The notes beneath the pieces are model-generated. The model did not search any database. It was not told the origin of the DNA and was given only the letters and a program-made list of their open reading frames with translations. Source: Halarcobacter sp. (GTDB taxonomy: Bacteria > Campylobacterota > Campylobacteria > Campylobacterales > Arcobacteraceae). Taken from it: a stretch of DNA of 64,000 nt. Made by a program: the position numbers and the translations under genes. The number at the start of each line of letters is the position of its first letter. Position 1 is the stretch's first letter. The stretch is taken from assembly GCA_048571215.1 (NCBI GenBank), contig CP182352.1, positions 1,408,001 through 1,472,000 of the forward strand. The letters run 5' to 3'. Positions 52,109 to 64,000 of the stretch are shown here, piece by piece.

Positions 52109-53408
52109 TATAATAAATATTATAAGGATTGATATAGATGGAAAAGAAAAAACAATTTGATTTTAATGAAGCTGTACAAGATTTACTTGCAGGTAAAAAT
52201 ATCAATGGTAAAGATGGAGTACTTGCTCCATTAGTAAAACAATTAGTTGAAGCTGCTTTAGAAGCAGAATTAGATTCTCATATAACTCAAGATGTATTTG
52301 CAGGAAATAAAAATAGAAAGAATGGTAAAAGCTCTAAAACAATAAAATCAACAAGTGGTTCCTTTGAATTGAATACTCCAAGAGATAGAACAGGTTCTTT
52401 TGAACCACAACTTGTAAAGAAAAACCAAACAACAATGTCTAATGAAATAGAAGAAAAGATATTATCTATGTATGGCTTAGGATTAAGCTATAGAGATATT
52501 ATAAAACATATTGAAGAGATATATCAAATACAATTATCAAGTGCAACAATAAGCACTATTACAGATAAAATTATAGATAAGGTAAAAGCTTGGCAAAGTA
52601 GACCTTTAGAAGCTATTTATCCATTTGTATGGCTTGATGCGATACATTATAAAATAAAAGATGGTGGGAAGTATGTGAGTAAAGCAGTTTACACAGTTTT
52701 AGGGATGGGAATTGATGGTAAAAAAGATATATTAGGATTATATTTATCCCAAAGTGAAGGAGCAAACTTCTGGCTTAGTGTTCTTACTGATTTAAATAAT
52801 AGAGGATTAGAAGATATACTAATTGCATCAGTAGATGGTCTTAAAGGCTTTCCTGAAGCTATTAAAACAATATATCCAAATACCGAAGTACAACTTTGTG
52901 TTGTACATCAAATTCGTAATTCATTGAAGTATGTAGCTTCTAAAGACCAAAAAGAGTTTATGAGAGATTTAAAACTTGTTTATCAAGCAACAACAAAAGA
53001 ACTTGCAGAAGATGAGCTTTTAAAACTAGATGAAAAATGGGGGAAAAGATATCCCATAGTACTTCAATCTTGGCAAAATAAATGGGAGAATTTATCTTAT
53101 TATTTTAAATATCCAAAAGAGATAAGAAAGATTATGTACACTACAAATATTATTGAATCTGTACATAGGCAATTTAGAAAATTAACCAAAACAAAAGGAG
53201 CTTTCCCTAATGAGAATTCACTTTTAAAATTGTTGTATATGGGAATATTAAATGCAAAAGTAAAATGGACTCAGCCAGTGCATAATTGGAGTTTAACAAT
53301 CTCCCAACTTGCTATATTTTTCGAAGGGAGATTGGATAATTATTTAGAGTTGTAACAAGTATGGATTTGTTACTTTAGGTGACTTGACACAGATTTTTGA
53401 ACGGTCTC
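52079..53408 (+). mobile_element. IS256-family insertion sequence, 1330 bp, 8-bp TSD
   Basis: Imperfect IRs GGGAGTGTTAGAAAATCTGTGTCA (52079-52102) and TGACACAGATTTTTGAACGGTCTC (53385-53408). Direct repeat AAGTCTTA at 52071-52078 and 53409-53416. Confidence 0.96.
52138..53355 (+). CDS. IS256-family (Mutator) DDE transposase
   Basis: PRDR.GSFEP, WQSRPL, WLDA, VDGLKGF, QLCVVH..RN, YTTN.IES. Confidence 0.96.
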   Translation: MEKKKQFDFNEAVQDLLAGKNINGKDGVLAPLVKQLVEAALEAELDSHITQDVFAGNKNRKNGKSSKTIKSTSGSFELNTPRDRTGSFEPQLVKKNQTTMSNEIEEKILSMYGLGLSYRDIIKHIEEIYQIQLSSATISTITDKIIDKVKAWQSRPLEAIYPFVWLDAIHYKIKDGGKYVSKAVYTVLGMGIDGKKDILGLYLSQSEGANFWLSVLTDLNNRGLEDILIASVDGLKGFPEAIKTIYPNTEVQLCVVHQIRNSLKYVASKDQKEFMRDLKLVYQATTKELAEDELLKLDEKWGKRYPIVLQSWQNKWENLSYYFKYPKEIRKIMYTTNIIESVHRQFRKLTKTKGAFPNENSLLKLLYMGILNAKVKWTQPVHNWSLTISQLAIFFEGRLDNYLEL

Positions 53409-56178: not shown

Positions 56179-56233
56179 GTTTTTCTAGAAGTTGAACACT
56201 TCTATAATCTCGCTTGTACTCACTGCGTAAGAA

Positions 56234-56440
56234 CGCTTTCTTTACTTTTAGTGGTAAAAGTAAAACAAAAGCCACCAGACGCGTTGTTGAAGCTAAAGTT
56301 CCCTCCCACTTCACTTTTTAAAGCTAGCCTGCAAAACTCCTCGAAAAAGTGACATCTAGTCACTTTTCTCTCGTTAGACAGTTTCGGCTTTTTCCGCTTT
56401 AAAAAGCGAAGTACTCGGCTTCAACAAAGTCTGGACTAAA
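56234..56440 (-). repeat. divergent, inverted copy (R0) of the structured intergenic repeat
   Basis: Minus strand reads ...GAAGCCGAGT...AACTGTCT...GAGTTT...GAGGGAAC...GCTTC... then a terminal hairpin TTTACTTTTA-CCAC-TAAAAGTAAA. Motif order matches R1-R3. Confidence 0.75.
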
Positions 56441-56467
56441 ATTCCCTAGCCTTGAACTTTCTCATAC

Positions 56468-56848
56468 TATTTGAGTATTACACAAATCCAAACAAAATGG
56501 TACCAAAAAATGAAAAGGTCATTATCCCACCTTCCCGCATTTGAGAAGCCGAGTGTTTATTTTTGCTTTTCGGATGTAATCCTGCTTGCAGGCAAAAGTT
56601 TTTTAACTGTCTGAGTGTCAAAAACGTAACTAACTTACGTTTTAGCGAGTTTTGAAAAACAGAAAAGTGAAATAATAAGCGAGGGAACCTTCGGCTTCGA
56701 AACCCGCGGGATAATTTCTTTGCTACTTTCTTTTTCACAAAAGAAAGTCGGAATAAGTTAAAACGTACTGCAAAAGTTTATTTATACTCAAATATTTTGA
56801 TAATAGTATTACCCAAATATACATAATATATTTATCATTTTGTTAAAC
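56468..56848 (+). repeat. structured intergenic repeat copy R1 (intact; candidate ncRNA or MITE-like element)
   Basis: Homologous to 59272-59505 + 60806-60936 and to 63895-64000. Nested inverted repeats. Outer IR TATTTGAGTAT (56468-56478) / ATACTCAAATA (56784-56794). Confidence 0.9.
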
Positions 56849-57064
56849 AATAAAATGTTATTTAAAGTTAAGTTTTTCACCTTTAACATACATTATGTAT
56901 ATTAAAGTACTAAATATAAACATAAAATATATATAAAGATTATAACTTATAATAAAAATATATAGAAAAAAATATCATATTATGTAATGTTTTTTCTATA
57001 AAGATGTATAAGATGAGCTTTCTTTGTAAATATATAATAAAGTAGTATATTTAAGTACTTTATT

Positions 57065-57095
57065 TATATAATGTATATTCAATAAATAGTTAGAC
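57065..57095 (+). other. attI-like cassette entry site with TATAAT (module 1)
   Basis: TATATAATGTATATTCAATAAATAGTT, 22/27 identical to the sequence ending at 61159. Ends in core GTTAGAC. Confidence 0.55.
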
Positions 57096-57109
57096 ACAAA
57101 GGAGTAGTA

Positions 57110-57757
57110 TTGCCATTAAAGCCAGATATAATAGAACTGATTGACAATTATTGTACTAAAGATTTGCCAGGAGATTTACAGTGGCATATTGATAGATTTA
57201 ATTTCATTAAAAATACAGATTTACAAAATAAAATAGGCAGAGCATATTATAGTTCTCGTTATATGAGTAAATTAATGGAAGCACTAAGAGGAACTGGGGA
57301 TGAACTTCATCCATTTGTTAAATTCCAAATATTACAATATGCATCTATTTATGAAGCGGTTATAACTTACTTACTTTGGGATACATTTAAAGAACATGAT
57401 GAAGTAATACAATTACAAACACATAAAACATATAAACCAGTTCATGCTTTAGGAAGTAAAACTAGCATAAAATATGATGGAGAGGATGTTTTCACTTGTG
57501 TATATCGTGATGTAAAAACACATAAAAACTCAATTTCTTTTCCAAGCAAAGTAGATTGTGCAGTTAGAATTGGTTTTTTAAATGAAACATATGCTGAGGA
57601 TATTAAACATATTTATATGCTTAGAAATTTAGCACACATTGAAACAGAAGCTGATAAAAAAATTGAAGTTGAAATTGAACATTCAAAACTAGGATATTGG
57701 AGATTAAAACCTTTTCTTGATGATATTGTAGCTTTTTTTGAAGAAAACAATAGCTAA
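57110..57757 (+). CDS. cassette 1 gene A, hypothetical (possible HEPN-like)
   Basis: AGGAG RBS plus TTG start; helical, YASIYE and C-terminal LRNLAH. Confidence 0.7.
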   Translation: MPLKPDIIELIDNYCTKDLPGDLQWHIDRFNFIKNTDLQNKIGRAYYSSRYMSKLMEALRGTGDELHPFVKFQILQYASIYEAVITYLLWDTFKEHDEVIQLQTHKTYKPVHALGSKTSIKYDGEDVFTCVYRDVKTHKNSISFPSKVDCAVRIGFLNETYAEDIKHIYMLRNLAHIETEADKKIEVEIEHSKLGYWRLKPFLDDIVAFFEENNS

Positions 57758-57776
57758 TGAACATTAAAGAGATAAT

Positions 57777-58577
57777 ATGACAATTGAAGATATTCAGAAG
57801 CTAATTAACATTTATAATAAAGGTATAAAAACCTATAAAGAAATGTGCGACCATATTTTAAAACAAGATACAAAAATTAATAATGAATTATTTTTACTAT
57901 TATTAGCAGTATCAGACTCAATGGAATCATTAGCAATATTAGGCAACTTCAATAAAATGAGAGATTGTTATGTTGTCTCAAGAACAATTTATGAAACTAC
58001 TTTAAATATTCTGCTTATTTTATCCACAGATTTTGAATCAATGGATGAAATGACTAAATATACATATGATGAAATTGAGCAAGAAGATTCTCGTTCAATT
58101 ACTACCGACAGTGAAGCAGTATTTTTTGCTTTTGATGGAATAAAGCATACTGTTGGATTTGCTAAAAATAATCCTTTTAAAGTAAGAAATCCACGTTCTT
58201 GGACAAAACATAAAATACAGAATAGAATAAATCTTATTGATAAAAAATATGGAAAAGTTGTATCTCGTTCTTTACAAGTAGCTCACTTGACAATTTATAG
58301 AACAAGCTCAAATATTGCTCATGGAACTCTTTATGGAATGCTTCAAGCTATGGGTTTAATTCATGAAAAAGAGATCAAAGAGTTTACAGATATTAGTATG
58401 ATAGAACATAATTTTCAAGTAATTACTACGTTATTACTAACTATATCTCAAAGTGTTTATGGATTGACATATGCATTAGATAAAGAACTAGGGTTAGAAG
58501 AATTTGAAAAAAGTTTTTATACTAGTTTAGAAGAATTTATAAATGAAGGCAAACAATTATTGTCTAACAAAACCTAG
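57777..58577 (+). CDS. cassette 1 gene B, DUF5677-like protein
   Basis: SRTIYE and IYRTSSNIAHG motifs; 3' end overlaps attC. Confidence 0.65.
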   Translation: MTIEDIQKLINIYNKGIKTYKEMCDHILKQDTKINNELFLLLLAVSDSMESLAILGNFNKMRDCYVVSRTIYETTLNILLILSTDFESMDEMTKYTYDEIEQEDSRSITTDSEAVFFAFDGIKHTVGFAKNNPFKVRNPRSWTKHKIQNRINLIDKKYGKVVSRSLQVAHLTIYRTSSNIAHGTLYGMLQAMGLIHEKEIKEFTDISMIEHNFQVITTLLLTISQSVYGLTYALDKELGLEEFEKSFYTSLEEFINEGKQLLSNKT

Positions 58578-58632
58578 GAGAGAAATAAGTTACCCTAGCG
58601 GGCAAACTTATTTCTCAAGTCAAACGTTATAA
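58562..58632 (+). other. integron attC site 1 (71 bp)
   Basis: GTCTAAC...GAGAAATAAGTT-ACCC-TAGC-GGG-CA-AACTTATTTCTC...GTTATAA: inverse core, central palindrome, core. Confidence 0.85.
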
Positions 58633-58643
58633 ATAAGGAATAA

Positions 58644-59204
58644 TTGATGAATAAAAAATATTCAATTGTTATAGTGATTTGTTTTTTAATTTTTTGGTTT
58701 GTAAAACTTTTAGATTCTACGGGAACAATAGATACTATAAAATTAGCTATGAATGATAAATTTAATTATAAAATAGAAACATTACTTACACAAGCGGATG
58801 ATGAGGATATGGTAAAAATATTAAATAGTTTTATGAAAAAAGTTCAAAAAGATTATGCCAATAAAACTACAAGTGAAACGGTATTATTAAGTGCAAATCA
58901 AAAAAACAAACATGTAGTGTATAAATTTCAAATGAATTATGATGACCTATTACAATCTGTACCAAATAAAAGAAAGTTATCAAATAAAATTAAAAATTTA
59001 GTATATAAAGATATATGTTCCCAAGGAATATTATCCTTTATTGTTGAAAATAAGGCAGTAAGTTTTGAGTATATTTATTATGATTCTTTATCAAAAGAGC
59101 AAAATAGATATTTGATTCAGAGTGATGATTGTAAAATATGGGAAGATAATAATTTAGTATTTTCATTAACTAAAAAAGCGAAAAATTTTATAAATAGTCT
59201 TTAG
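58644..59204 (+). CDS. cassette 2 gene, N-terminally anchored or exported hypothetical protein
   Basis: AAGGA RBS right after attC; N-terminal hydrophobic segment. Confidence 0.7.
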   Translation: MMNKKYSIVIVICFLIFWFVKLLDSTGTIDTIKLAMNDKFNYKIETLLTQADDEDMVKILNSFMKKVQKDYANKTTSETVLLSANQKNKHVVYKFQMNYDDLLQSVPNKRKLSNKIKNLVYKDICSQGILSFIVENKAVSFEYIYYDSLSKEQNRYLIQSDDCKIWEDNNLVFSLTKKAKNFINSL

Positions 59205-59514
59205 ATATAATATTTATAACGAATCAGTGAAATAACACCCCCAGAGAATGAATTTCCACTTTTATAATAATTATTGAGTATCACACCAATTCAAATAAAA
59301 TGGTATCAAAAAATGCAAAGGTCAATTTCCTACCTTTCCGCATTTTAGAAGCCGAGTGTTTATTTGTCTCTTTTGAAAACAAGTGACTAAACTGTTTGAA
59401 GCGTAAAGAAACGTTCTGGGAGAACGTTTTAGCAAGTTTTTAGGCACTCAAAAGGGATGAATAATAAGCGAGGGAACCTTCGGCTTCGAAACCTGTGGGA
59501 TAATTCGTATAATA

Positions 59515-59740
59515 AAATATTGGAAATATGATAGTATATTTTCATAGAGTTCAATAGAAGATGATATATTGTGTGGGTGGTTGAAGCAATTAAAAATAAT
59601 TTTAATTAGCTTGTAAAGAAGTTCAATAGTTATACTTCAAATTTGAGTGGCAACAAGAACAGTTTTATAACTAGTTCGTATTTACGAGTCTAAAGTTTGT
59701 ATGACGAAATATCAGGTAGGAATTTTATTCCTACCCTAAC
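59515..59740 (+). ncRNA. predicted IS110 bridge RNA (ends approximate)
   Basis: 5' hairpin; target loop with GGGTGGTT (59575-82) and AAAGAAGTT (59615-23); donor loop with GTGGCAAC (59647-54) and TACGAGT (59683-89); 3' hairpin GGTAGGAAT/ATTCCTACC. Confidence 0.85.
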
Positions 59741-59772
59741 GAACTCTTTATATTAATACAAAGGTTCTAGAT

Positions 59773-60756
59773 ATGTATTCTATCGGATTAGATATAAGTA
59801 AGTCAACAATTAATATTTATATCCCTATCAATGATTTAGATATTCAAATATCAAATAATTTGAAATCACTTAAAGGTTTTTATTCTAAGTTAAAAAAACT
59901 TTATAAAAAAGATATAGATAAACTTGTATTTGTTTTTGAACCTACAGCTAATTATTCCTTTTTAATTAAAAAGTTTTGTTCTGAAAAAAGTATACACTGT
60001 TTTATTGTTAATCCAAAGAAAAGTGCTAACTTTGCTAAAGCAATTGGTCAAAGAAATAAAACTGACCTTTTAGATGCTAGAATGTTATCTCAGATGATAG
60101 TTACTGCAAGAAAAAATCAGATTAAAATACCCATTATTAATCCTTATGCCGAGGAATTAAAAGAGCTTATTACATATTATAAATTTATATCAAAAATTAA
60201 AACTCAAAATAAAAATCATTTGGAAGCTTTAGTTTCAAAAGATGCTTCATCTATTATAATTAAATCATTAAGAAAAGATATAAAATCATTTGAAAAAAAA
60301 GAAAAAGATATTCTTATTGAGATAAAAAAAGTTATTGCAAAAGACAAAAATTTACATAATGCATTTTTAAATATCCAAACTATAAAAGGCATAGGAGAAT
60401 TATCTTCAATTATATTATTACACCATTTTATACAATATCCTGATACAAATCAAAAGCAAATTGTTTCATTAGCTGGATTAGATCCAGTTAGTAGAGATTC
60501 TGGTTCATCAATAAAAGGAAAAACAAAAATATCAAAATCTGGTTCAAAATTATGTAGGGGTACATTATTTATGGCAGTAATGACAGCGATACAATACAAT
60601 GAAGAATTAAAAATATTTTATAATAGATTAAAAGAGAATGGCAAACATACTACTGTAGCACAAATTGCTGTAATGCGAAAAATGATTGTAATTGCTCACT
60701 CATTATATAAAAATAATAATATATATGACCCTAATAAATTTAAAAGTATATCATAA
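59773..60756 (+). CDS. IS110-family DEDD recombinase/transposase
   Basis: IGLDISK (D), FEPT (E), KTDLLDA (DD), TIKGIG, GLDP..RDSGSS (catalytic Ser), ISKSG, AVMRK. Confidence 0.96.
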   Translation: MYSIGLDISKSTINIYIPINDLDIQISNNLKSLKGFYSKLKKLYKKDIDKLVFVFEPTANYSFLIKKFCSEKSIHCFIVNPKKSANFAKAIGQRNKTDLLDARMLSQMIVTARKNQIKIPIINPYAEELKELITYYKFISKIKTQNKNHLEALVSKDASSIIIKSLRKDIKSFEKKEKDILIEIKKVIAKDKNLHNAFLNIQTIKGIGELSSIILLHHFIQYPDTNQKQIVSLAGLDPVSRDSGSSIKGKTKISKSGSKLCRGTLFMAVMTAIQYNEELKIFYNRLKENGKHTTVAQIAVMRKMIVIAHSLYKNNNIYDPNKFKSIS

Positions 60757-61132
60757 ATATTAGATTTAAATATTTTATATTTTATCATTTTTTAAGGTGG
60801 CAACTTCTTTGCTACTTTCTTTTTAGAAAAGAAAGTCGAGAAAACCAAGAGGTACAGCAAAAGTTTATTTACACTCAAATATTTTGAAAATAGTTTTACC
60901 CAAACACAACATAATATATTTATCATTTTGTTAAACTATCAAGATTTTCACCAAATAGTCATACAAAATGATAAGATATTAAGGATATACCTTGATAATC
61001 TAACATAAAAAATGTTCTACTTTTTCTTATATTATTTTGTATTTTATTAAATTTAGACTATTTAAGGCTTATTTGAGCTAATATCTTTACATTTTTAATG
61101 TTAAGATATTAGATGTTTTTATATATTATTTA

Positions 61133-61163
61133 TATATAATGTATTATTAATAAGAAGTTGTAT
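61133..61163 (+). other. attI-like cassette entry site with TATAAT (module 2)
   Basis: TATATAATGTATTATTAATAAGAAGTT followed by GTAT; homologous to 57065-57091. Confidence 0.55.
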
Positions 61164-61192
61164 GAACATATAAAATTAACTGAAGAGTATAG

Positions 61193-62362
61193 ATGAACAA
61201 TCATATAGAAATTTTTATAAATAATAAGTCTAATCAAATTCCGAGTAATGATATTGACTATATAAATAGTTTTTTACCATTTTATGCAGATGTTAAAAAT
61301 GACAATATAGCTTATTTATTCGCTTATTATCATTATAAATTTAACAGTTTATTTAGTTTTATGAATTCTAAATTAAATTCTGATAACCATCATTATAATG
61401 CTGACCCAAGTCGAGAACTAATAGCAATAATCGATGACTTAGAAAATGTATCAAGGGAACTGAAAAATACAGAATATAATTTTAACATTGATACTAATTA
61501 TCTAGAAATCATTAAATTATGTAAGACATTTTTATTAGGTAGTGGGGGAAGTCCTATTCCAGATGACTTCAAAAAAATTAATATCATTGAAGCTAAACCA
61601 ATTTTTCACATAAATACAACTATTACAGTTGAAAATGTAAAACTTGGTTTAAAATTAATAGGTGAAGGTTCATATGCACAAGTACTAAAATATAAAGACC
61701 AATTTTACAATAAAACATTTGCTTTAAAAAGAGCAAGACATAATCTTACTGATAAAGAATTAAAACGATTTAGAAGAGAATACGAAAGTATGAAGAGTTT
61801 AAATTCTCCTTATATTTTAGAAGTATACAAGTTTGATGAAAAAGAAATATCGTACATAATGGAATATGCTGATTTCACATTAGCTGATTACATAAAACAC
61901 AATAATACTAAATTAACTTATAATCAAAGAAAAAATATTATAAATCAAACTTTCAAGGCTTTTGAATACTTAGAAAGTAAAGATATACTACATCGAGATA
62001 TTAGTATAAATAATATACTTTTAAAACAATATGATGACTTATTTGTTGTAAAAATTTCTGATTTTGGACTTGTAAAACTAAAAAATAGTGACTTGACAAG
62101 TCAAAACACAGAATATAAAGGCTCACTAAATGATCCAAAGCTAGATATAGTTGGTGGATTTAAGAACTATGAAATACATCATGAAACATATGCATTAACT
62201 AGATTAATATACTTCATTTTAACTGGTAAAATTCGTATAGATAACTATAAAAAAAATGAACAACTAGAAACATTCATAAAAAATGGGATTTCTGATAATA
62301 TAGACCTTAGATATCATTCTATTAAAAAGATGCGAAAAGCTTTTAATGACCTTGTGTTTTAA
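61193..62362 (+). CDS. cassette 3 gene, Hanks-type Ser/Thr protein kinase with N-terminal helical domain
   Basis: IGEGSYAQV, ALKR, F.RE, YIMEY, LHRDISINNIL, KISDFGL. Confidence 0.92.
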   Translation: MNNHIEIFINNKSNQIPSNDIDYINSFLPFYADVKNDNIAYLFAYYHYKFNSLFSFMNSKLNSDNHHYNADPSRELIAIIDDLENVSRELKNTEYNFNIDTNYLEIIKLCKTFLLGSGGSPIPDDFKKINIIEAKPIFHINTTITVENVKLGLKLIGEGSYAQVLKYKDQFYNKTFALKRARHNLTDKELKRFRREYESMKSLNSPYILEVYKFDEKEISYIMEYADFTLADYIKHNNTKLTYNQRKNIINQTFKAFEYLESKDILHRDISINNILLKQYDDLFVVKISDFGLVKLKNSDLTSQNTEYKGSLNDPKLDIVGGFKNYEIHHETYALTRLIYFILTGKIRIDNYKKNEQLETFIKNGISDNIDLRYHSIKKMRKAFNDLVF

Positions 62363-62372
62363 GGCGTTATTC

Positions 62373-62442
62373 ATACAACAAAAACGAGGAGACCAATAAT
62401 TTACCCTTGCGGGAAAATTATTGCTCACGACAAACGTTAACT
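62373..62442 (+). other. integron attC site 2 (70 bp)
   Basis: ATACAAC...GAG-AC-CAATAATTT-ACCC-TTGC-GGG-AAAATTATTG-CTC...GTTAACT; homologous to attC 1 with compensatory changes. Confidence 0.85.
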
Positions 62443-62461
62443 CAACAGTAAGGAAAATAAA

Positions 62462-63448
62462 ATGGAATCTAAGCATATAATTTATCTTGACACTTCAGGA
62501 TTAAATTATTTAGCTGATAAAGTCAAAAATTTTGATGATTTTTCTAAAATTAAAAATCATTTAAATTTTGAATTCTATTTATCTCCAATAACACTATGGG
62601 AAATCTTACTTAATGGGAATGATGAAAGAAAGGACTACTTAATTTATTGGTCTCAATTTAACTGTGCTAATAATCTAATAAAATCACCAACAGAAATAAT
62701 TTTAGATTTTATTAAATTGGACTGTCCATTAAAGGACAGAAAAGAATTCTATACTGATCCATATACAAAAATGGACTTAGGTATTACTTGGCAGAATATC
62801 CATCGTAAAATTGATAAAACTATTCCAATAGATTTAAATGAACTAAAAGAAAAAACTAAACCAATCAGAGATTTTTCAAAAAAGTTAAAAAAGATAATAA
62901 CTGATATGTGTAACGAAGAATATTCAAACTATAACAACGACCCATTTCATAAAGCTATGTTAAAAGTATGTAAAAATCTTGACTACTCTGACTCTCAAAT
63001 TAGTAAATATGAAAAACTTATAAAAATAGCATTAGTTTTCTTATTTTTCATTATCTGTATTGGAATCGAACTTCAAAATAATTTACTTAGAGCATATTGG
63101 AAAGAACTAAAGATAGAGGACCCATTTGATAAATTAGATTATTTGATAGATAATTATCCAATGTTATTAAATAGAGGACCTTTAATCGAAATGGCTAAGA
63201 TGTCTGATGAACAATTGAAAATGAGTAATTCTAAAAGTAGAGGTCTCCTTCATGATTGTTTTCATGCAATTTATTGTTACTATACAGATAATGTAATTAC
63301 AGGTGACGAACATTTCAAATCATTGAGAGAAAATGAAAAAGATACAATTTTTAGTCGTATTTTAATGACTGAAGAGATAGAACTGATATGGGAAGAAACA
63401 CTAAATGAGCTAACAAATCAGTCAGACTGTGAATTTAGTCCCAAATAA
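62462..63448 (+). CDS. cassette 4 gene, PIN-like domain protein
   Basis: IYLDTS, LSPITLWE, HDCFHA, VITGDEHF match the acidic pattern of PIN folds, split by a helical insert. Confidence 0.65.
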   Translation: MESKHIIYLDTSGLNYLADKVKNFDDFSKIKNHLNFEFYLSPITLWEILLNGNDERKDYLIYWSQFNCANNLIKSPTEIILDFIKLDCPLKDRKEFYTDPYTKMDLGITWQNIHRKIDKTIPIDLNELKEKTKPIRDFSKKLKKIITDMCNEEYSNYNNDPFHKAMLKVCKNLDYSDSQISKYEKLIKIALVFLFFIICIGIELQNNLLRAYWKELKIEDPFDKLDYLIDNYPMLLNRGPLIEMAKMSDEQLKMSNSKSRGLLHDCFHAIYCYYTDNVITGDEHFKSLRENEKDTIFSRILMTEEIELIWEETLNELTNQSDCEFSPK

Positions 63449-63860
63449 ACTAAATTTACAGTAAAAATCCAAATTAATTTCCAGAATATCTGATATTTTT
63501 TCTTAAATTTTTTAGATATAAAAATTTTTGTAAAAAATAAACCAAATAAAGTCCAAACACTAAGATATATTCCTCTATATCTTTTGTAATTTGGGTTAAA
63601 TCTTTATTTTTTATGGCTAAACACAGTTTTTTAAACAGAGTTATCCCTATAAGATTTAAAAGTCTTCTAAAATTATATGTAAACATAATAAGAGCATTTT
63701 CACCAAGTACCTTTTCTTTAGAACGAACTAAAAAATGATCCCAACTTAAAGTTCTTTTAATTGTATCATAGAGTGAAACGGAATCTACTTGCAAAATGTA
63801 TGTTCTACTATTAAAGATCTTTTTTTAACTATATCTTTAGCTTTTTTGCTATTTATTATT
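63423..63860 (-). pseudogene. IS1182-like transposase 3' remnant with one terminal end
   Basis: Minus strand KDIVKKRSLIVEHTF / DTIKRTLSWDHFLVRSKEKVLGENALIMFTYNFRRL, interrupted. Putative IS end CAGACTGTGAA at 63423. Confidence 0.75.
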
Positions 63861-63894
63861 ATACGAGAGAATTAATCTCCACTTTTAAAATAGT

Positions 63895-64000
63895 TATTGA
63901 GTATTACACCAACAAAAACAAAATGGTACCAAAAAATGCAAAGGTCAATTTCCCCTCTTCCCGCATTTGAGAAGCCGAGTGTTTATTTGTCTCTTTTGAA
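63895..64000 (+). repeat. structured repeat copy R3 (5' part, cut by the window edge)
   Basis: TTGAGTATTACACC...AAAATGGTACCAAAAAATGCAAAGGTC...CCCGCATTTGAGAAGCCGAGTGTTTATTTGTCTCTTTTGAA. Confidence 0.92.

Follow-up and report, generated by a model that had tools for sequence, protein, structure and literature searches.

attI-headed cassette arrays behind a large folded repeat point to a probable distributed integron in a Halarcobacter genome

The 64,000-nt stretch of DNA analyzed here (the window) covers positions 1408001 to 1472000 of C1, the single contig of a 3.61-Mb Halarcobacter genome with 28.5% GC (G000; relatives are likewise given G numbers). Toward its right-hand end two modules lie in tandem, each consisting of a large folded repeat (R), a platform, a 27-nt site that, judged from its sequence, is the attI of Arcobacteraceae integrons, and two gene cassettes with attC sites; no integrase gene (intI) adjoins an attI in the window. 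All of the parts that an earlier reading of the letters alone (the original prediction) had listed for the two modules were found where it had placed them, and the third unit that it saw beginning leads to a module outside the window, with an attI at C1:1472866.

R, about 600 nt long, is made up of two halves, A (about 270 nt) and B (about 330 nt), which alternate in tandem; it and the other parts of the window modules listed below lie on the forward strand unless stated otherwise. In module 1, half A of R1 occupies 56200 to 56465 (the start is approximate; positions 40 to 274 of the half-A hidden Markov model (HMM) match at 56234 to 56465) and half B 56468 to 56812 (HMM positions 2 to 331; fold z score, -3.9). 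The repeat predicted to start at 56468 is therefore present, but what had been seen was half B alone, and the true start lies near 56200. Platform 1 (56813 to 57064) joins R at a junction of type J1 and is, by homology, a former intI-attI intergenic region, containing the region of the integrase promoter PintI and the cassette promoter Pc, from which intI is gone. The attI core follows at 57065 to 57091, with the crossover G at 57089 and an L-box-like heptamer 5 nt before the GTT. Cassette 1 (57090 to 58626) is present as predicted and contains two open reading frames (ORFs), one of 215 amino acids with no known family (57110 to 57757) and one of 266 amino acids that resembles DUF5677 (57777 to 58577; 25.4 bits, under the cutoff of 27.1). 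Its complete attC (58562 to 58632) belongs to the genome's attC family. Cassette 2 (58627 to 59229) has a 186-amino-acid ORF of no family (58644 to 59204), and its terminal attC, predicted to be cut at 59214, extends only from there to 59229, severed about 9 nt past R''; the cut is genuine, because the same cassette has a whole attC in G174.

Module 2 is headed by leader L (59230 to 59262), a REP-like motif of about 30 nt (REP, repetitive extragenic palindrome) that stands before internal R copies and is also found free-standing. Half B of R2 begins at 59273, close to where the original prediction had put it (59272), but it is split: its 5' part (59273 to 59505; HMM positions 4 to 237) is followed by an overlooked IS110 insertion sequence (IS) at about 59506 to 60802, with a transposase gene at 59773 to 60756 and a noncoding region of about 270 nt upstream, and the repeat resumes at 60803 (to 60900; HMM positions 231 to 332). 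Platform 2, of lineage P2 and again with junction J1, runs from 60901 to 61132, and the attI core from 61133 to 61159 (crossover G, 61157). Cassette 3 (61158 to 62436) encodes a Ser/Thr kinase of 389 amino acids (61193 to 62362; Pkinase, E value of 1e-30) and ends in a complete attC at 62373 to 62442. No NCBIfam family scores above its cutoff for this kinase; the top PADLOC model is Stk2 (E value of 6e-36), so that it may be an antiphage cassette, and relatives at 68 to 72% DNA identity sit outside recognizable arrays. Cassette 4 (62437 to 63422) has a 328-amino-acid ORF (62462 to 63448; PIN domain, 20.5 bits, below the cutoff). Its attC (63408 to 63422) is indeed cut, after R'' and the spacer, but by an IS1182-like remnant on the reverse strand (63423 to 63857, with 82 to 94% matches to five other places) and not by R3; the split R2 and this cut attC thus both result from insertions. 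A degenerate leader and the start of R3 (B-A-part B; 63866 to 64000) then head toward the third platform and its attI.

The 27-nt site is not a chance motif. A position weight matrix seeded with 15 of its matches (leave-one-out scores, 23.7 to 34.8) found 23 matches above 21 bits in G000, whereas nothing in two shuffled genomes scored higher than 16.8. One more site found by blastn brings the count to 24, in 12 clusters. The sites have the layout described for a simple recombination site (PMC12901181): an L box, a 5-bp spacer, and an R box reading GTTRRRY, the heptamer ahead of the spacer being ATTCAAT 26 times, TACTAAT 22 times, and TATTAAT 11 times. In G000 itself a motif with one mismatch to the site at 57065 faces intI at C1:896469, and the motif faces a whole or frameshifted intI in G002, G003, G015, G016, G017, G019, and G024; no such motif was found next to intI in G020 or G027. 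The TATAAT inside attI is a candidate for the -10 element of Pc. Promoters that lack a -35 box are found in Campylobacterota.

G000 has a single intI above the TIGR02249 cutoff (C1:895245 to 896189; stop-free, 398 bits), and tblastn revealed nothing further in this genome beyond a 12-codon remnant. This sole intI lies 569 kb away from the modules. The attI beside it starts with a 33-nt cassette without an ORF, followed by a GC-rich attC of foreign type of about 160 nt (C1:896493 to 896680; locus L181), and the start of the 33-nt cassette also follows an orphan attI (one without neighboring intI) in G022. A perfect palindrome between intI and this attI (C1:896340 to 896370) is a candidate regulator site.

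The 240 nt ending at the first window site share 89% identity with the intI-linked platform of G024 and 88% with that of G019, both of them other species, but 65% with the intI-linked platform of G000 itself and only 62% with the platform at the second window site. The two window sites, which had been taken to be the same, also differ at five positions. Because their platforms are so dissimilar, the two modules are not copies of one another; this dissimilarity and the distant position of the sole intI led us to reject a decayed local duplication of one integron with its intI just outside the window. Six P2 platforms in G000 are 85 to 98% identical; no intI-linked P2 member was present among the platforms sampled, and most other lineages include intI-linked ones. 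Every stage of intI decay is represented (full length, frameshifted, amino acids 1 to 71, 1 to 34, or 1 to 27, and none); G006 carries a partial intI, and the second type of junction between R and platform, J2, retains the first codons of intI. Homology thus indicates that the platforms descend from intI-attI regions.

Both complete attC sites of the window have bottom strands that fold better than expected (z scores of -5.3 at 58562 and -4.9 at 62373, with none of 200 shuffles equally good), and the remnant at 59214 gave no fold signal (z score, -0.4). Two whole and two cut attC sites without a neighboring intI make the window a CALIN (an attC cluster that has no integron integrase; at least two attC sites). 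The starts of cassettes 1, 2, and 3 are complementary to their R'' ends at 10/12, 10/12, and 11/12 bases, and that of cassette 4, as read from the sequence, at 8/9. In a wider test, the three informative core bases complemented the next R'' at 30 of 48 orphan sites (mean of 4.3 and maximum of 12 in 5000 permutations); in the G000 subset, the first-cassette core did so at 10 of 12. One identical 27-mer precedes 15 different starts.

The locus that holds the modules, between an ABC-F gene and lpdA, varies between species. G002, G006, G016, and G023 also have attI there, each with other first genes, which makes five species with attI and differing first genes; G012 has R alone; and attI, attC, and R were not seen at the locus in 13 of 18 relatives, one of which, G020, has a weak 22-bit match in a nonsyntenic region. 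An IS256-family transposase gene (window positions 52138 to 53355) occupies the position at which G019 has a complete integron, between a response regulator gene and the ABC-F gene.

These observations support the suggestion in the original prediction of multiplied mini-integron platforms served in trans: the sites are attI by sequence, the platforms descend by homology from intI-attI intergenic regions, one intact intI lies elsewhere, joining is at the GTT, and the cassettes vary between species at one locus. We consider it probable that a distributed integron is the best explanation. Each module would start at a genuine attI with its upstream promoter region, as homology indicates, intI having been deleted to at most its first codons. 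IntI made from the single intact gene would act in trans, recombining attC with attI so that cassettes enter any of the sites at its GTT, and each site would head an independent short array with a promoter-proximal first position.

Cassettes shared between arrays bear on whether loading went on after intI was lost. Cassette 2 is 97% identical to a cassette of G174, which belongs to another genus; in G174 the cassette starts precisely at an orphan attI's GTT and has a whole attC at its end. An orphan array in G015 has as its second cassette one that shares 98% identity with the first cassette at C1:2822874, and G015 has one cassette, at 97% identity, in both its intI-linked and its orphan array. 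Because R-platform junctions are common to species and yet cassettes are nearly identical across species, loading of the orphan sites probably continued after the loss of intI. These data also bear on a different explanation, that each platform is the relic of a separately acquired, complete integron that loaded its cassettes and then lost intI, with the REP-like R promoting the deletion and the sites now inert. The full series of intI decay stages and the presence of intI at different loci in different species fit such a history, as does the guaA locus, where G024 has intI with a P1 platform and G016 has R with P1, and loss of intI is a published origin of CALINs (PMC4889954). Twenty-three independent losses, however, would not share two junction types or yield pairs of platforms that are 96 to 98% identical, nor would they account for 97 to 98% identical cassettes across species or genera at the GTT of platforms whose R junction is common to species, and we regard this explanation as improbable.

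R itself is a structured repeat. Half A shows weak homology to half B taken as its reverse complement (62% over 134 nt), and both halves fold as single strands (half A as single-stranded DNA, z scores of -7.1 and -10.7 against doublet shuffles). In 20 copies of half B, pairing holds in 97.4% of cells, and both sides have changed in 11 of the 46 predicted pairs; the covariation score exceeded all 500 shuffles, but the count of pairs changed on both sides was reached by 169 of the 500, the structure having been derived from the same alignment and the changes coming in blocks. Rfam has no family for R and gave one chance match (E value, 0.95) outside it, so R is not a known RNA family. R was also rejected as a giant attC, as the attC HMM misses it and its box spacing is wrong, and as a MITE (miniature inverted-repeat transposable element) or IMU (integron mobilization unit), as it lacks precise ends and no duplication was seen. 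R1 and R3 are 73% and 89% identical to R2 over 135 nt and their left ends differ, so that the modules are not flanked by near-identical elements; on average, R copies are 70 to 82% alike. They are mosaic: similarities of adjacent segments correlate (r = 0.28 to 0.56), whereas those of distant segments do not (r = -0.23 to 0.08), and window module 1 and the module at C1:963134 are 88 to 100% identical over most of half B, with one 60-column stretch at 77%; their identity is 90% in the platform and 45 to 83% in half A. Palindromic inserts of about 20 nt recur in both orientations at different R loops (several copies, e.g., window positions 56577 to 56597). With its extragenic palindromic units alternating in tandem (A-B-A-B arrays), R looks like an old, mosaic repeat akin to BIMEs (bacterial interspersed mosaic elements).

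In G000, half B of R lies within 500 nt upstream of attI on the same strand at 16 of the 24 sites, against 0.32% of positions, and no copy in the opposite orientation to attI was seen. The prediction that each unit is delimited by the repeat therefore stands as a strong enrichment and not as a rule: 7 of 19 clusters in G000 have R without attI, and among attI sites of relatives, 22 have R, 11 have intI or a fragment of it, and 27 have neither nearby, shares that carry bias because the loci were picked through searches for R and attI. At 20 loci from other genera, no attI has R ahead of it in the same orientation, and none of the R copies has an attI. R is thus not required for an orphan attI, and it also stands alone. 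Where R and a platform are linked, the junction is J1 or J2 in 31 of 38 cases, spanning platform lineages, against a background of at most 1 in 1500; one locus has P1, P2, or P4 behind R, depending on the species, and is empty in G000. The notion of a repeat-bounded unit that moves cassette pairs shares in this enrichment, but the arrays hold from one to five or more cassettes, and neither a target-site duplication nor a dedicated transposase was found. R has ragged ends, and comparisons of empty and filled sites, which come from different species, revealed no target duplication; of the sites that looked empty, two contain collapsed R remnants and one is truly empty.

Under the distributed-integron reading, an old extragenic R would have fused early in the genus to intI-less platforms through the two junction types, and the R-platform unit would then have been copied and reassorted. 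The most likely route is homologous recombination, both among R copies and among the conserved ends of platforms. Such recombination would give both the direct-repeat chains R-attI-cassettes-R-attI-cassettes and the different platform types behind R at one locus, and R would serve as a portable homology handle that is helpful and not required. Multiplication by recombination between R copies is the step that we infer with least certainty. The fusion of R to platforms is new, and the role given to it here is a proposal.

It is also conceivable, though doubtful, that R is a dedicated cis-acting mobilization element, and that R with its intI-less promoter-attI platform forms a nonautonomous unit copied by an enzyme acting on the folded single strand; if so, the cell would breed new promoter-equipped docking sites, and one IntI would fill them in parallel. 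A related explanation, which we judge rather unlikely, takes R, with or without leader L, as the cis element of a unit for which a RAYT (REP-associated tyrosine transposase) or HUH transposase acts in trans, copying R together with the platform 3' to it and truncating the DNA upstream. R folds on both strands and covaries, and its orientation to attI is constant. Most internal modules begin sharply at leader L, with a cut attC, an IS, or platform DNA upstream, and this sharp junction favors an enzyme. Leader L, which has 23 fuzzy matches in G000, lies in inverted orientation on the flanks of a broken RAYT gene in G014; in G000 it is next to a RAYT 5' fragment. Two P2 copies 2.1 Mb apart are 98% identical, and one site filled at loci L112 and L106 is empty in G000. 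Against these points, none of 19 PF01797 loci has half A or B nearby, on which ground RAYT was rejected as the partner of R; unlike in a REPtron, only leader L flanks a RAYT gene, a broken one, and no L motif adjoins the single intact RAYT of G000. The ragged ends and the failure to see a duplication count against mobility too, as do the collapsed remnants, which imply that R is old at those sites, and R-platform loci are often orthologous between species; blastn of R and the platform against plasmid and phage collections gave no match. Leader L behaves like the REP of a RAYT family seen as fragments only (C1:548400 to 548541 and L138:1345 to 1718), and it also separates Rhs-like orphan modules at C1:809 to 810 kb and 2554 to 2558 kb.

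That IntI itself builds the chains, either with R or L as an unusual att site or with platforms riding in attI-bearing cassettes like the delta-attI cassettes, seems very improbable. The inverted arms of half B open with AAC or CAC and close with GTT, the beginning of leader L resembles an attC left half, recombination of attI-ORF-attI arrangements occurs in class 1 integrons (PMC12901181), and tandem attI without R occurs in G016, G052, G088, and G096. The box spacing in half B is nevertheless unlike that of attC, and the attC HMM does not find R; in the cases read, the bases ahead of L do not complement the start of the upstream cassette, and the inner platforms are whole regions of 250 to 300 nt and not short delta-attI pieces.

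Both R and attC are targets of insertion sequences. The IS110 element in R2 (NF033542, 159.9 bits; cutoff, 140) has the transposase, upstream noncoding region, and specific target of its family. Two IS110 subfamilies target R, with four copies at one point of half B (window positions 59506 to 60802 and C1:1705108, 2521627, and 2826742) and, on the opposite strand, three that share one point of half A (C1:383537, 424877, and 969584). Their upstream noncoding regions have a common core, and within each lie short copies of its own target flank and of the element's right end, as would be expected of a predicted bridge or seek RNA. The IS1182-like element lies at the same attC position, just past R'' and the spacer, at four loci (window position 63423 and C1:631396, 959838, and 1937010); the copy at C1:631512 scores an E value of 3e-25 against NF033551, and the window copy scores 0.013. 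IS110 thus targets R, and the IS1182-like element targets attC. Targeting of attC is known for IS1111-type elements.

Several points weigh against the distributed-integron reading. A sigma-70 promoter scan called 6 sites, against 4.8 in shuffles, and did not call the TATAAT within attI. The complementarity test started from 84 sites, of which 27 had no detected attC and 3 could not be parsed and were dropped, leaving the 48 orphan and 6 intI-adjacent sites, and its positive control was weak, with 2 of the 6 intI-adjacent sites complementary (one parsing error, and others in which attC was probably missed). Cassettes could arrive already joined to a platform, through horizontal transfer of whole blocks, and a 3.2-kb block is indeed 98% identical between G000 and G002; such transfer may explain some of the shared cassettes. 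Some arrays may be frozen, as the complete genomes G012, G018, G010, and G023 hold 2 to 4 sites and have no intI match. As to R, its mosaicism shows that R copies recombine, not that recombination moves platforms, and the sharp left end of internal modules at leader L is unexplained by simple homologous recombination. Four sequencing runs from a single study contain 88 to 89% of the sequence words and may be the source of the genome. Contigs from sequencing runs confirm the unique parts of the window and break at repeats; because the joints that they have at attI most likely stem from other loci, they show neither excision nor strain variation.

The arrays resemble several known systems. Like CALINs and SALINs (their single-attC counterparts), they are short attC clusters without neighboring intI that are possibly served by a distant IntI (PMC4889954; bioRxiv 10.1101/2022.09.11.507474), and the origins proposed for those include loss of intI, rearrangement by IS, and insertion at genomic attG sites (same sources). 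CALINs and SALINs, however, are defined by attC alone, whereas at the head of each cluster here, in 23 copies, stands a real attI together with its promoter region, and the clusters so are entry points and not stranded arrays. IntegronFinder seeks only exact attI sites of classes 1 to 3, and only near an integrase. With a complete chromosomal integron they share the attI, the attC family, the GTT joining rule, and the cassette pool, but here there is one intI for 24 attI-like sites in 12 clusters, and in place of a single long queue there are short arrays in parallel. In the defective class 1 integrons flanked by IMUs or MITEs, a folded noncoding repeat of a few hundred bases likewise lies beside an integron with truncated intI (PMC3575428; PMC3184786); the copies there are identical, carry terminal inverted repeats, lie on both sides, and make a 5-bp duplication when they transpose (Poirel 2009 and Gillings 2009, as given in PMC3575428 and PMC3184786), whereas R is 70 to 82% alike, mosaic, built of two inverted halves, ragged, always on the intI side, and without a visible duplication. 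The delta-attI cassettes of PMC12901181 show that an extra attI inside an array stays recombinogenic in a known system; those are short attI pieces replacing attC in mobile integrons, whereas here whole platforms of several lineages are spread over the chromosome.

With REPs and BIMEs, R has in common that it is extragenic, palindromic, mosaic, made of alternating inverted tandem units, and hit at a fixed point by IS110. REP units measure a few tens of bases. Those of R, in contrast, measure about 270 to 330 nt and flank no intact RAYT. IS110 elements known to target REPs are IS621 and ISPa11 (PMC3184786; PMC11187229). Overall, the accessible literature establishes CALINs, loss of intI, action in trans, attG insertion, delta-attI cassettes, MITE-flanked defective integrons, and targeting of REP and attC by IS110/IS1111 elements (PMC4889954, PMC8618304, bioRxiv 10.1101/2025.06.18.660453, PMC3575428, bioRxiv 10.1101/2022.09.11.507474, PMC9668308, PMC11187229, PMC3184786, and PMC12901181); nothing was found in it on the attI of Arcobacteraceae, on a single intI with many attI-headed arrays around it, or on R, and most subscription papers and supplements, which may list Arcobacteraceae CALINs, lay outside its coverage.

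In a survey of 184 genomes of the family, the strict attI pattern occurred in 82 (the reversed pattern occurred in 1), with the highest count, 16, in G000; intI (E value of 1e-50) in 52, mostly as one copy; and R-like DNA in 46, from 8 of 22 genera. An exact 23-nt R motif was found in 28 stretches of a contig collection, every one labeled Arcobacter or Halarcobacter. In a genus of 44 genomes without an intI match, 15 have the attI motif, some of it as tandem attI-headed arrays on second contigs of 100 to 140 kb, next to a resolvase-like gene (loci L147, L148, L150, and L151); those on the second contigs of G052 (L147) and G047 (L148) are without R. In an order-wide sample the motif was also present in three other families (13 genomes), often in 2 or 3 copies.

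The usual model of an integron is a single queue in which one position is well expressed. With about two dozen attI heads and one integrase, a genome could express many first-position cassettes at once, and current tools would score it as scattered CALINs and SALINs. For one family, the arrays offer a concrete answer to the open question of where small CALINs come from. The analysis also describes a large folded repeat outside Rfam, with two IS110 elements apparently programmed against it, supplies a family-wide attI consensus, and renders the loading of orphan attI sites in trans directly testable.

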